Source of the DNA: a virus | Strand: one strand, 5' to 3' | Virus record (IMG/VR): IMGVR_UViG_3300045988_085380 | Location: 96,001 to 160,000 of that record | DNA: 64,000 nt | In this document: piece by piece, positions 33,254 to 38,178 of the stretch | How the letters are laid out: each line of letters starts with the position of its first letter | How positions within the stretch are numbered: position 1 is the first letter of the stretch | Notes under the pieces: model-generated | What the model was told of the DNA's origin: nothing | Database searches by the model: none | Seen by the model: the letters and a program-made list of their open reading frames with translations, nothing else | Position numbers and translations under genes: made by a program

Positions 33254-33433
33254 ATGAAAAATAATATTAAGCACGGTTTATTATCTTTAGGTGTATCTAT
33301 TATATGTGCTATTCTATTCTTGATTTTATGGAATACTCAGATGTTCGATGACATAATTAGTGATAGAGGACCTCTAACTTTAGAGGGTTCTCCTAATGCT
33401 GTAAGGATGGGTTTCTGTCATTGTGTTATTTAA
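33254..33433 (+). CDS. small membrane protein (59 aa); in frame with 33434..34057 across a single TAA
   Basis: TM segment LLSLGVSIICAILFLILW; the TAA at 33431 is the only interruption. Confidence 0.4.
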   Translation: MKNNIKHGLLSLGVSIICAILFLILWNTQMFDDIISDRGPLTLEGSPNAVRMGFCHCVI

Positions 33434-33559
33434 TGGGTTTTATTTATTGCGGCTTTTGTCACCGCTATTAATGCTATCTGTATATTTAGTGATGGGAAAG
33501 AAGACTATTCAAACATAAATATTAAGAAGAAGTGGATTGTAATTCCTGGAATTATTATA

Positions 33560-34057
33560 TTGTGTTGGTTTATAAGTCCTATTGGTGCTATAATAAAATT
33601 GTATAATAAGAATATTGAATATACTAATCAGCTAGACAAGCAACAGTATGCTCGTAAAATGTTCTTCGATAAATTATGGAAAGTGTATCTTCAGAAGTAT
33701 GAAATTTGTGAATTAAATAAGAATACTTTCTTAGAAGTCACTAATATGATTATGGAGGGAAGACATGATGGAGAACAAGTTACTTGGAAATGGCTTCAAG
33801 AGAATCAAAATATTCCTTATTCTGAATTTACTAGATTTTATAGTGATTTATCTGGATTTGTAAATGGACAACGAGAGGAGTACTACAAGTTAGAAGAAGC
33901 ATGCATGGAAACAGTAAGACAACAGAACTCTATGTTGGATTCTTTTCCTAATGTAATGTATAATAAGGTACTTGGTATTCAGAAATTACAATATAATCCA
34001 GGATTTACTTCCACTCATACAGAACATGTATTTAAAACTAAAAAGGAAGATATATAA
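33560..34057 (+). CDS. hypothetical protein (TTG start in the track; 42 upstream in-frame sense codons encode TM helices)
   Basis: No ATG or GTG between 33434 and 33559; see finding. Confidence 0.45.
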   Translation: MCWFISPIGAIIKLYNKNIEYTNQLDKQQYARKMFFDKLWKVYLQKYEICELNKNTFLEVTNMIMEGRHDGEQVTWKWLQENQNIPYSEFTRFYSDLSGFVNGQREEYYKLEEACMETVRQQNSMLDSFPNVMYNKVLGIQKLQYNPGFTSTHTEHVFKTKKEDI

Positions 34058-34332
34058 TGAGTATAGAAGAAAAAGTAATAAGCATTGTTAGTGAAGTCCT
34101 TGGCATAGAGAGAGAAAAAATAACTAGTGCAGATACTTTCGATGATTTGTACGCAGACAGTCTTGATTTAGTAGAAATTACCATTGAATGTGAAAAGGAG
34201 TTTAGTTATCCTATCACAGATGATAAAGTTCAGAATCTAAAGACTGTAGGAGACTTAGTTAATCTTATTAAAGACTTGGATAATAGGGATTACTTAGAAA
34301 GTACTCAGGCTGATTTACAAATAGATGAGTAA
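34057..34332 (+). CDS. acyl carrier protein-like
   Basis: FDDLYADSLDLVEITIECEKEF (DSL phosphopantetheine-attachment-type motif); 91 aa, acidic. Confidence 0.65.
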   Translation: MSIEEKVISIVSEVLGIEREKITSADTFDDLYADSLDLVEITIECEKEFSYPITDDKVQNLKTVGDLVNLIKDLDNRDYLESTQADLQIDE

Positions 34333-34366
34333 TCATCTAATTATTATATTAATTCAATTCACAATT

Positions 34367-34969: not shown

Positions 34970-35070
34970 TTAATTAAGTTAATTCGGTTTTAATTCTTGA
35001 TTCTATAAGGGAGTATCTTTAATTAGGTACTCCTATTTTTAGTTAATTCACAATTATTTAATAAAGTTTT

Positions 35071-35697
35071 ATGATTAATTTAAGTAAAGGTGGCAGAATC
35101 AATCTGTCTAAAGAGTCTAACAATGGTTTAAGTAAATTGTTCTTTGGTTCAAACTGGGGTGCCATTCAGCATCGTGGACTGCTTGGCATTGGTAGGTCTA
35201 TTGAGAAAGTAGATTTGGATTCTACTGTTCTTCTGTATGACACCAATAAGAATTGTATTGGTGAAGTAGCTTATTACAATTTAAGTGCTCCAGGTATTCG
35301 TCATAGTGGTGATGATCGCTCAGGTGATACTAATGGTAATGATGGTCTTGATAATGAGACTATTGAAGTACGTCTGAATGAGCTTGACCCACGTGTTGAG
35401 TATATTGCATTTACTCTCAATAACTTTACACATCAGACATTTGGTGAGATTCCTTATATGGGTCTTCGTATTTACACAGGTGACCAAGTACAGAGAAACA
35501 CTAATACTCCTGTAAATGTCTTAGCTAAGTTTAATCTTGAAGACGGTAAGGAAGGTACCAAGATTTCTGATAAGCAGGCGGTTATTCTTGGTATTGCCTA
35601 TAAGAAGGATGGTGAATGGCGCTTTAAGGCAGTTGGTGAGTTTGGAGGTTGGACTTCAATTGATGCTATGAAGCGTCCAACAATTGCATTTCTTTAA
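35071..35697 (+). CDS. TerD-domain protein (divergent second copy)
   Basis: MINLSKGGRINLSK...HSGDDRSGDTNGNDGLDNETIEV...GEWRFKAVGE. Confidence 0.8.
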   Translation: MINLSKGGRINLSKESNNGLSKLFFGSNWGAIQHRGLLGIGRSIEKVDLDSTVLLYDTNKNCIGEVAYYNLSAPGIRHSGDDRSGDTNGNDGLDNETIEVRLNELDPRVEYIAFTLNNFTHQTFGEIPYMGLRIYTGDQVQRNTNTPVNVLAKFNLEDGKEGTKISDKQAVILGIAYKKDGEWRFKAVGEFGGWTSIDAMKRPTIAFL

Positions 35698-35718
35698 TTA
35701 ATTATAATAACAGAAAAA

Positions 35719-38178
35719 ATGACAGATATAAATTACGGTCTTAGCTTAACAGAAGTAGAAGATTCACGTGCTAGACATGGTATTAATGTATTGACACCTC
35801 CAAAGAGGGATGCTTGGTATGTAATGTTACTTGATGGATTTAAAGATCCACTTATTGTAATATTACTTATTGCAGCTGCAGTATCTATCGCCTTGGGTTT
35901 TGTAAAGGGTGAATTTACAGAGCCTATTGGTATTATTGTAGCTATTGCTTTAGCTGTAGGTATTGGTTTTTGGAATACTTGGTCAGCAGCTAAGAAGTTT
36001 GACCTTCTTTTAACTAGTAGTGATGATACTCTAGTTAAGGTAAGACGAGATAATGGAGTAATTCAAGTAGCTCGTAAAGACTTAGTTGTAGGAGATATTG
36101 TAATACTTGAAGCTGGTGAAGAAGTTCCTGCTGATATTATTATTAAGGAATATAGCAATTTGAAAGTAAGTGAGGCTTCTTTAACTGGAGAAACAAATCC
36201 TGTAACTAAAACTAATTTTGAATCAGAAACTGCTACCTATCCTACAAATAGAATTTATAAAAGCACTATTGTGGCTGAAGGTACTTGTGTAGGTGAAGTA
36301 TTTGCAGTAGGAGATGAAACAGAAGTAGGTAAGACTGCTAGAGAAGCATCTTCTATTACTGATGTAGAAACACCTCTTAATAAACAGCTTAATGGATTAG
36401 CTAGCTTAATTAATAAGATAGCATTCACAGCTGCAGGTATTCTTATTGTATCTCTTGCTATACGTTATATATTTATAGAGCAGGGATATGTAGGCAAAGA
36501 TACTATTGATATTGTAAATGATTGCTTACAATTCTTAATGATTGCAGTAGCCCTTATTGTAGTAGCAGTACCAGAGGGTTTACCTATGGCTGTAACTCTT
36601 GCTCTTGCCTATTCTATGAAGAGAATGGCTAAAGCTAACAATCTTATTAGAAAGATGCATGCTTGTGAAACTCTTGGTGCTACAACTCTTATTCTTACTG
36701 ATAAGACAGGAACTCTTACAGAGAATAAAATGAAAGTAGTATTCCAGGACTTTACAGACAGAAATGCTGTTATAAATAATATTGTACTTAATTCTACTGC
36801 TAATCTTAGTCCTGTAGGAGAAGTAGTAGGAAATCCTACAGAAGGTGCTTGTTTGCAATATATACAAAAATCAGTTGATATTACTGATAAAAGAAATAAA
36901 ACTCATATAACAGATAGAGTAGAATTTAATTCTAAGAATAAATATATGATTACTAGCGATGGAGTAGTTACTTATATTAAGGGAGCTCCAGAAATAGTAA
37001 TGAATTTCTGCTCTAATGAGAAAATACCTAATTTTGTAGAACAACAATCTAAAGGCAGAAGATGTATAGCTTTTACTCACAAGGTTGGTTCTGATATAAA
37101 TACTCTCTCAGACTTCATATGGGATGGCTACGTAGCTATCGAAGACCCGGTGAGAAGTAATGTACCTGATGCAATTCAGGCTGCTAGAAACGCTGGAATT
37201 AAAGTTAAGATTGTGACAGGTGATAATCCTGAAACAGCCGCCTCTATTGCTGCTCAAGCTAATATCTCTCAAATTCCTAACACAATGCTTGGTAAGGAAG
37301 TTAAAACTCAAACAGATACTAATTTACGTAAAGTAGATGTATTTGCTAGAACTAAACCTGAAGACAAGCAGACACTTGTTAAGAGATTCCAGAATATGGG
37401 AGAAGTAGTAGCTGTAACTGGTGATGGTACAAATGATTCAGCTGCTCTTAACCAAGCTGAGGTGGGTGTAGCTATGAATAATGGTACTGATATTGCTAAG
37501 AATGCAGCTGATGTTATTCTTCTTGATAATTCGTTCCCTTCTGTTATCTTAGGAGTTAAGTGGGGAAGAAGCTTGTATAAGAATATTCAGCACTTTATTC
37601 TCTTCCAGCTTACTGTAAATGTTGTAGCTATTGGTATTGCTTGTGTAGGTCCATTTATTGGAGTAGACTTACCATTTACTGTTATCCAAATGCTATGGGT
37701 TAACTTAATTATGGATACTTTTGCTGCTTTAGCATTAGCCACAGAACCAGCTAATGAAGCAGTAATGTCTGAACAGCCTCGTGATCCTAAGGCATTTATT
37801 ATTACAAAGAGAATGTGGTATGAAATCTTTGGCGTAGGTATTTTGTATTTTGGCATATTATTATATTTGCTAATTAGTAATACATATAGCCTTACAGAGT
37901 TCTTCACTATCTTTGTTATGCTGCAATTCTGGAACTTGTTTAATGCAAGAGTATTTGGACAAGACAGAAGTATCTTTAACGGTTTGTTAAGTAATCCTGC
38001 ATTTATTGGAATATGTTTGGTTATATTTATTGGTCAAATTTTGATAGTTCAATTTGGTGGCGATGTATTCAGAACAGAACCATTAAGTATTGAAACATGG
38101 TTAGAAATTGTAGGTCTTACTGCAATTGTACCAGTTTGTAGAGAACTCCTATATTGGATTAAAAAGTTATTTAAGTAA
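35719..38178 (+). CDS. P-type (type II, Ca2+-transporting-like) ATPase
   Basis: TGET (A domain), VPEGLP (M4), DKTGTLT, TGDN, GDGTNDSAAL; about 10 TM segments. Confidence 0.9.
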   Translation: MTDINYGLSLTEVEDSRARHGINVLTPPKRDAWYVMLLDGFKDPLIVILLIAAAVSIALGFVKGEFTEPIGIIVAIALAVGIGFWNTWSAAKKFDLLLTSSDDTLVKVRRDNGVIQVARKDLVVGDIVILEAGEEVPADIIIKEYSNLKVSEASLTGETNPVTKTNFESETATYPTNRIYKSTIVAEGTCVGEVFAVGDETEVGKTAREASSITDVETPLNKQLNGLASLINKIAFTAAGILIVSLAIRYIFIEQGYVGKDTIDIVNDCLQFLMIAVALIVVAVPEGLPMAVTLALAYSMKRMAKANNLIRKMHACETLGATTLILTDKTGTLTENKMKVVFQDFTDRNAVINNIVLNSTANLSPVGEVVGNPTEGACLQYIQKSVDITDKRNKTHITDRVEFNSKNKYMITSDGVVTYIKGAPEIVMNFCSNEKIPNFVEQQSKGRRCIAFTHKVGSDINTLSDFIWDGYVAIEDPVRSNVPDAIQAARNAGIKVKIVTGDNPETAASIAAQANISQIPNTMLGKEVKTQTDTNLRKVDVFARTKPEDKQTLVKRFQNMGEVVAVTGDGTNDSAALNQAEVGVAMNNGTDIAKNAADVILLDNSFPSVILGVKWGRSLYKNIQHFILFQLTVNVVAIGIACVGPFIGVDLPFTVIQMLWVNLIMDTFAALALATEPANEAVMSEQPRDPKAFIITKRMWYEIFGVGILYFGILLYLLISNTYSLTEFFTIFVMLQFWNLFNARVFGQDRSIFNGLLSNPAFIGICLVIFIGQILIVQFGGDVFRTEPLSIETWLEIVGLTAIVPVCRELLYWIKKLFK

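Follow-up and report, generated by a model that had tools for sequence, protein, structure and literature searches.

A TerD-TerD-Ca2+-ATPase cassette of a crAss-like gut phage as a candidate minimal Ter/Yce-type module

A conserved three-gene cassette in a gut phage

Within IMG/VR virus record IMGVR_UViG_3300045988_085380, we analyzed positions 96,001 to 160,000, a stretch of 64,000 nucleotides (nt) referred to here as the window. Its plus strand carries three consecutive genes, which encode a canonical TerD-domain protein of 200 amino acids (aa) (terD1, 34367..34969), a divergent TerD paralog of 208 aa (terD2, 35071..35697), and an 819-aa P-type ATPase of the PMCA (IIB-like) type, a putative Ca2+ pump by its Pfam and TIGR01517 matches and its relatives in the PDB (35719..38178). 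We put the probability at about 0.6 that terD1-terD2-pump constitutes a minimal Ter/Yce-type cation-stress module arranged around a Ca2+ exporter, that is, a Ca2+-handling unit carried by a phage.

The gene order is highly conserved. When 21 window proteins were compared by tblastn with 49 related IMG/VR loci, TerD1, TerD2, and the pump were found in the same order and on the same strand in 47; one of the remaining loci is cut by a contig end, and the other (L038) has the pump only. Approximately 34 loci with pumps 60 to 66% identical to that of the window keep the cassette, while their flanks are almost unlike those of the window (three to four weak matches, E 1e-5). Because the adjacency persists while the flanks differ, the three genes appear to move as a unit. 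Co-conservation of the TerD genes and the pump, as proposed in a preliminary description of this DNA, was thus upheld by the survey. TerD1 and TerD2 each constitute an orthologous group of their own, and both groups are retained across all phage clades.

Members of the 60 to 66% clade differ from the window in cassette layout. Their terD1 and terD2 genes lie only a few bases apart (maximum, about 16 nt), and a very acidic, all-helical protein of 113 to 119 aa is encoded between terD2 and the pump (L017 9562-9921 and 29 other loci). This protein, which the window does not have, carries three DG/D-x-(I/V)-x-x-EE repeats, and a homolog (37% identity, E 3e-7) lies directly upstream of the pump in a Lentimicrobiaceae genome (L075 7595-7972). 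An assignment of the 119-aa protein to TerB was dropped, as its Pfam matches were below threshold (TerB, 0.011 to 0.021; DUF533, down to 5e-4; EF-hand). An AlphaFold2 model of the protein (predicted local distance difference test score of 89) retrieved no fold match from the PDB better than E 1.9. Also near the cassette in this clade are a ferritin-like gene (PF00210, 3.7e-12; 14962-15621 in L017) and an RNase H gene (5877-6287), and the pump-only locus L038 contains a phosphoribosyltransferase-like gene at 14965-15777.

The pump is predicted to transport Ca2+ through a single site

All of the motifs that the preliminary description had listed for the ATPase (TGET, PEGLP, DKTGTLT, TGDN, and GDGTNDSAAL) can be read in the translation. 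The catalytic motifs DKTGTLT (containing D328), LTGET, GDGTNDSAAL, and VPEGLP are invariant in an alignment with relatives, and Pfam matches comprise E1-E2_ATPase, Cation_ATPase_N, Cation_ATPase_C, Cation_ATPase, and Hydrolase. The PMCA-type NCBIfam equivalog TIGR01517 was passed with 625.1 bits (cutoff, 507.05), while the pump scored below the cutoffs of the PMR1-type (440 versus 798) and Mg-type (225 versus 611) models and below those of the SERCA-, H+-, and Na/K-type models. The best PDB matches were ACA8, PMCA2, PMCA1, SPCA1 (about 3e-101), and Listeria LMCA1, with the LMCA1 alignment spanning pump residues 6 to 815.

The residues expected to coordinate the ion point in the same direction. 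The M4, M5, and M6 motifs (VAVPEGLP, FQLTVNVVA, and MLWVNLIMDTFAALALATEP, respectively) are nearly identical to those of PMCA and ACA8, with the key M6 residues N662 and D666 located in WVNLIMD. No variation was seen at E286, N634, N662, D666, or D328 across phage and bacterial relatives. We take E286 (M4) and N662/D666 (M6) to be equivalent to the SERCA site II residues E309, N796, and D800 in the established numbering, and A637, M665, and the M8 Gln of MLQFWNLFNAR to occupy the positions of the SERCA site I residues E771, T799, and E908. The site I acids of SERCA are absent from the pump; as in PMCA and ACA8, Ala and Gln are found there. Retention of site II together with replacement of the site I residues indicates, at the level of sequence, a single-site Ca2+ pump like PMCA and LMCA1. 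The earlier proposal that the ATPase moves Ca2+ is therefore supported both by the TIGR01517 match and by the presence of the site II residues on alignment.

The phage pump shares with PMCA, ACA8, and LMCA1 all P-type motifs, the single site II (E-N-D), and the Ala and Gln at site I positions, but it is viral, shorter (819 aa), and without an autoinhibitory extension. Its core domains span the whole protein, from residue 2 (start of Cation_ATPase_N) to residue 813 of 819 (end of Cation_ATPase_C). Because the protein begins and ends with core domains, the Pfam domain bounds leave no calmodulin-binding or autoinhibitory extension at either the N or the C terminus. In having no regulatory tail, the pump would resemble a minimal bacterial pump of the LMCA1 type.

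In two relatives (L013 and L014), the pump gene is interrupted. An insert of 1,127 nt (11711-12837 in L013) splits the gene within the hinge motif, between GDG and TND, and encodes a 242-aa HNH-like open reading frame (ORF). The insert resembles an intron carrying a homing endonuclease, and no Rfam intron model matched it. An intein was ruled out, as 1,127 is not a multiple of 3.

Two divergent TerD paralogs with candidate Ca2+-binding loops

Profile searches bore out the earlier identification of two TerD genes. TerD1 (E 8.2e-59, 198.7 bits) and TerD2 (E 3.8e-23, 82.4 bits) both match PF02342 above its cutoff of 25.3 bits. The terD1 reading frame is also open from 34325, but we assign its start to the conserved ATG at 34367, since relatives diverge upstream of this codon and a conserved box (described below) abuts it.

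TerD1 is the more typical of the two. A PDB search aligned it end to end, at about 50% identity, with Klebsiella TerD 2KXT (1.8e-49) and with 3IBZ (1.7e-51). It contains FDLD and HSGDNRTGAGAGDDET and keeps HSGDNRTGxGxGDDE, of which GDNRTGxGxGDDE is common to the Klebsiella protein and Streptomyces TerD-domain proteins, both about 50% identical to TerD1. TerD2 also matches 2KXT (E 1.5e-11) but differs from it by an insertion in the loop and a later deletion. The insertion consists of four residues in the Ca2+ loop (HSGDDRSGDTNGNDGLDNET), giving a pattern GDxxGxDG(L/M)DNE that is common to all TerD2 orthologs, and the deletion beyond the acidic loop removes the HDAxxRQQ segment. For the Ca2+-loop motif GDN(R/L)TG(E/A)G(D/E)GDDE, TerD1 has GDNRTGAGAGDDE and TerD2 the variant GDDRSGDTNGNDGLDNE. 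The signature HSGD(N/D)R(T/S)G...D(D/N)ET, previously noted in both proteins, was seen again in both, along with FDLD/VDLD. By analogy with the Klebsiella TerD fold, which binds Ca2+, and its loop motif, TerD1 and TerD2 are predicted to bind Ca2+.

TerD genes beside PMCA-like pumps in bacteria

To survey bacteria, GTDB species representatives were scanned with the pump alignment, yielding 80 sampled loci. The nearest bacterial pumps belong to Bacteroidales (Phocaeicola, Paraprevotella, and Prevotella) and are 41 to 45% identical to the phage pump. A TerD gene occurs within 8 kb of the pump in 6 of the 80 loci and on the same strand as the pump in 4. As TerD loci are rare, we estimate that well under 1% of random 16-kb windows hold a TerD gene. 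Given that background, the proximity of TerD to PMCA-like pumps appears strongly non-random, and it seems to have arisen in several gene orders.

Both the order and the company of the genes vary among the loci found. By Pfam, a Clostridium locus (L089 2741-10625) reads YceG-TelA-TerD-TerD-TerD-pump, with a PMCA-like pump. In Ruminococcus (L115), the order is pump-TerD-TerD, as it is on the high-GC fecal contig MT840059, and L050 likewise has a pump followed by two TerD genes. A Lachnospiraceae locus (L085) has a pump and then a TerD cluster (five tblastn hit regions), and a Lentimicrobiaceae locus (L075) encodes TerD, membrane proteins, the acidic protein, and the pump, in this order. Three IMG/VR loci with Bacteroidales-type pumps (L134 48-12290, L182, and L136) encode two HSP70-like proteins, two TerD proteins, a transmembrane protein, and the pump, in this order.

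The operon of the yce type in Bacillus subtilis has a TerC-family membrane protein in the place where the Clostridium locus has its P-type pump. By gene content, this locus would therefore belong to the yce/ter operon type, its membrane component being a P-type pump. The phage cassette can accordingly be read as the minimal core of a Ter/Yce-type module, namely, TerD paralogs together with a cation exporter.

Among the Bacteroidota loci L134, L182, and L075, two very large HSP70/actin-like proteins accompany two TerD proteins of distinct subtype. The transmembrane protein of this set has a conserved C-terminal motif, and the L134 genes adjoin a tyrosine integrase; the L134 set may be a mobile stress or defense island.

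Relation to described systems

Ca2+-translocating P-type ATPases have been described in gut Jug phages with genomes of 360 to 402 kb, the same pump type being present in 81 further huge phages and in four with genomes of 159 to 197 kb (Chen et al., Sci Adv 2026, PMC12880540; bioRxiv, August 2025). Gut metatranscriptomes show high transcription of the phage Ca-ATPase, and manipulation of host Ca2+ was proposed (PMC12880540). The window resembles the Jug phages in carrying a P2-type Ca2+ pump, akin to those of Bacteroidales, in a gut phage of Bacteroidota that also encodes TerD proteins. It differs in that two TerD paralogs are fixed directly upstream of the pump and in belonging to a crAss-like lineage of about 185 kb, and its pump is only 41 to 47% identical to those of Bacteroidales. 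Directly upstream of the Jug pump lies a co-transcribed orphan gene encoding 77 to 91 aa (PMC12880540). No orphan of this type is present in the window, where terD2 takes that position, 21 nt from the pump; the acidic protein of the 60 to 66% clade may be its counterpart. The four phages of 159 to 197 kb may be members of the window's phage family.

These data qualify the earlier statement that no phage system of this composition has been described. The pump and TerD proteins in phages are published (PMC12880540), and the claim stands for the linked cassette. A literature search on crAss-like phages combined with TerD, tellurium, or cation pumps retrieved only the Chen et al. paper and its preprint, and at least 133 GenBank phage records carry a TerD annotation. 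Thus, the components and the general idea have been reported, while we found no description of a fixed TerD-TerD-pump cassette, of its presence in crAss-like phages, or of its Ter/Yce counterparts in bacteria. An older example of a virus-encoded Ca2+ pump is the Chlorella-virus Ca2+-ATPase, which is functional according to its citation in PMC12880540 (Bonza et al. 2010); encoded by a eukaryotic giant virus, it is not known to have TerD partners.

The cassette shares with the Ter/Yce loci (terZABCDE and the B. subtilis yceCDEFGH type) the adjacency of several TerD paralogs to a membrane cation transporter. In contrast to those loci, the phage keeps only two TerD genes and the transporter, which is a P-type pump in place of the TerC-family protein of the classical loci. 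Neither Pfam nor PHROG identified TerB, TerC, TelA, YceG, or TerA/Z among the neighbors at 31380-38738. Since none of these proteins is encoded beside the TerD genes, the cassette would work like a Ter module without being a canonical terZABCDE or yceCDEFGH system.

Phage lineage and expected timing of expression

On sequence grounds, the replicon is a large crAss-like gut phage, as judged from the kinship of its primase, its TAG recoding, and the size and origin of its relatives. The primase (54700-55701) is approximately 34% identical to crAss-like phage primases (cr55_1 and others), bearing out the crAss-like affiliation given in the preliminary description, and it is nearer to unannotated human-fecal phage contigs than to these. 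Helicase, DnaB-like helicase, and exonuclease genes follow it on the same strand. The close IMG/VR relatives are contigs of about 180 to 190 kb, most of which come from a single large data set of gut origin. In public assemblies, the pump protein occurs in thousands of near-identical copies, with some pump clusters exceeding 1,700 member sequences. A megablast search of 33000-38400 against GenBank phages gave zero matches.

The window encodes 12 transfer RNAs (tRNAs), a suppressor tRNA with the anticodon CUA, which reads TAG and not TAA (8034-8106, minus strand), and a transfer-messenger RNA (tmRNA) (30716-31049, plus strand) with the tag peptide GEVNNTSVSYAIAA (Rfam RF00023, 50.4 bits versus a gathering score of 47). 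Reading TAG as sense opens long minus-strand ORFs at the left end of the window, 1309-2934 and 2980-3651, with 25 and 8 in-frame TAG codons, respectively. These are TAG-recoded genes, probably of the late class; recoding of TAG in late genes is a known trait of crAss-like phages. The recoding is limited to the strand opposite the cassette, and the cassette and replication genes use the standard code. Because it is written in the standard code on the strand of the replication genes, opposite TAG-recoded genes, the cassette is probably expressed early or in mid-infection.

Several signals surround the genes. The preliminary description had reported that the same box precedes both terD copies, and we located ATTCACAATT at 34357-34366 and 35046-35055, with three more copies elsewhere in the window. 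This count of 5 compares with 0.5 expected, and none of 100 shuffles reached 5. The longer form TCAATTCACAATTAT (34354..34368, plus strand) abuts the terD1 start codon and is a candidate promoter, operator, or translation signal. TTAATTCACAATTAT (35043..35057, plus strand), 13 nt 5' of the terD2 start, is a candidate promoter for terD2 and the pump. It lies just past an intrinsic-terminator-like hairpin with a T-run (35009..35034, plus strand; -14.4 kcal/mol, z -3.6) between terD1 and terD2. The hairpin is kept in the 98% and 77% clades, and in L010 both of its arms have changed with pairing preserved (T-A to C-G, A-T to G.T, and T.G to C-G). Only 21 nt separate terD2 from the pump gene.

A role for ATTCACAATT as a deeply conserved regulatory site was ruled out, as the box is kept in the approximately 98% clade only. 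Additional copies of a (T/C)(T/C)AATTCACAATTAT box were noted in the window at 14542-14598 and 17203-17217 (minus strand); the one at 14542 adjoins a hairpin and is upstream of an ORF at 14614, the same layout as 5' of terD2. Rfam detected no cis-regulatory RNA near the cassette, its matches being confined to the tRNAs and the tmRNA. A sigma-70 promoter scan gave fewer matches than shuffled sequence, the sigma-70 model being uninformative for a phage of Bacteroidota.

Proposed function and alternative explanations

In the mechanism that we favor, the terminator after terD1 would be leaky, and terD2 and the pump would be co-transcribed. The pump would enter the host inner membrane and expel one cytosolic Ca2+ per ATP, probably constitutively, while the TerD pair would bind cytoplasmic Ca2+ to buffer it, to sense it, or both, and may also influence the pump. 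As a net effect, free Ca2+ would be clamped low in the infected Bacteroidota cell, which could protect replication or block a rise in Ca2+ that triggers host stress or abortive responses. Candidate purposes of the cassette thus include protecting replication, blocking Ca2+-triggered host responses, and excluding competitors.

A conserved three-gene unit with independent parallels in bacteria suggests a testable hypothesis, namely, that TerD and a cation exporter act together on cytosolic Ca2+. Known phage Ca2+ pumps would also be extended from the jumbo Jug phages to a very abundant crAss-like lineage, and the fixed soluble partners of the pump suggest that phages infecting Bacteroidota regularly control Ca2+. 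The widespread TerD proteins have a role in resistance to tellurite, colicins, and phages, the mechanism of which has been obscure for decades. A broader and rather speculative proposal, which we hold to be doubtful at present, gives TerD proteins a dedicated role beside cation-efflux transporters, as partners that sense cytosolic Ca2+ or regulate the transporter (TerC classically; a PMCA-type pump in this phage and in certain Clostridia and Bacteroidota). The phage would have captured the minimal working unit and would use it to hold down a rise in Ca2+ that otherwise sets off stress or abortive responses of the host. If true, the phage cassette would be the simplest natural system for testing the biochemical role of TerD.

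Several points weigh against a Ca2+-handling module. The Ca2+ specificity of the pump is a prediction from its residues and family membership. The nearest pump homologs in Bacteroidales mostly occur without TerD neighbors, and the enrichment of TerD near pumps was weighed against an estimated rather than a computed background rate. The pump of L038 (68% identity) has no TerD within 10 kb. Jug phages carry their TerD genes and their pump in separate operons (PMC12880540).

The last two observations would also fit TerD and pump genes that are independent auxiliary genes, adjacent by accident. We consider this explanation very improbable, as the adjacency persists down to 60% identity despite unrelated flanks and arose in different gene orders in Clostridia, Bacteroidota, and the phage. 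A functional unit might also serve as exclusion or defense cargo, shielding an infected or carrier-state cell from other phages, bacteriocins, or envelope stress without aiding phage replication directly. The composition of the cassette is that of a trimmed Ter/Yce stress operon, the Bacteroidota TerD-pump set of L134 adjoins an integrase, as on mobile islands, and phage inhibition is an established Ter phenotype, with plasmid ter operons conferring phage inhibition and colicin resistance. Nonetheless, the cassette sits with tight spacing among the early/replication genes and shares their strand, and nearly all family members keep it, like a core function; PADLOC defense-system models gave no hit for it. 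We thus regard a cargo role as unlikely.

It is less probable still that the phage TerD proteins are counter-defense decoys that mimic or titrate host Ter complexes or a Ca2+-triggered abortive signal, with the pump removing the Ca2+ signal, which is the counter-defense reading of the preliminary description. In its favor, TerD is common in Bacteroides, Phocaeicola, and Prevotella, the phage copies cluster with these (Chen et al., PMC12880540), and the TerD2 paralog is strongly diverged. The sequence reads the same for a decoy as for a working Ca2+ buffer, and the pairing of these genes also occurs in bacteria, for which mimicry would be pointless. Furthermore, we know of no Ter-dependent host defense in Bacteroidota. 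Finally, the pump might move another cation, either Mn2+ (SPCA/PMR1-like) or Mg2+/Na+, with the TerD proteins serving in general metal or oxidative stress. SPCA1, which has the same site II residues, ranks with the best PDB matches (about 3e-101), and the 60 to 66% clade has its ferritin-like gene nearby, but the PMCA-type model alone passes its curated cutoff, and the M5/M6 motifs FQLTVNV and WVNLIMDTFAALALATEP hardly differ from those of PMCA and ACA8. Transport of a cation other than Ca2+ is accordingly improbable.

Neighboring genes

Two genes upstream of terD1, which had been assigned to the module in the preliminary description, do not belong to it according to their distribution. The first encodes an acyl carrier protein (ACP)-like protein of 91 aa with a DSLDLVE motif (34057..34332, plus strand), which matches PF00550 (E 3.9e-13, 49.9 bits versus a cutoff of 20.8) and falls slightly below NCBIfam AcpP cutoffs (68.5 versus 71). 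It is restricted to the approximately 98% subclade, at varying distances from terD1, and has no counterpart within 10 kb in L010, in L011, or in any of the 60 to 66% loci; synteny in relatives thus rules it out as a module member. Its homologs are confined to its own phage family, and no phosphopantetheinyl transferase or acyl-transfer gene was found among approximately 35 window ORFs scanned.

The second is a membrane-protein gene of 267 codons (33254..34057, plus strand), the C-terminal part of which matches phrog_1383. It is present in the approximately 98% subclade and L011 and missing from L010 and the 60 to 66% clade. While the other ORFs originally listed (ACP, TerD proteins, and ATPase) were recovered as such, this one is broken by an in-frame TAA at 33431-33433. 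Aligned relatives (15 loci with 11 distinct sequence variants) carry CAA or CAG (Gln) at this codon, from which we conclude that it is a single gene with a nonsense mutation or sequencing error in the window. Recoding or read-through of the TAA was ruled out, given the CAA/CAG codons of relatives and a suppressor tRNA that reads TAG.

Farther out, an AAA+ ATPase gene (31380-32528, plus strand; PF00004, 4.5e-11; phrog_2376) is a conserved 5' neighbor of the cassette in the 98% clade and weakly matches the defense protein IetA in PADLOC (E 2e-4). An SPFH/Band-7 membrane-scaffold gene (44771-45550, plus strand; PF01145, 1.8e-18; phrog_200) lies 6.6 kb 3' of the pump and represents a further membrane-physiology gene in the gene block of the cassette.

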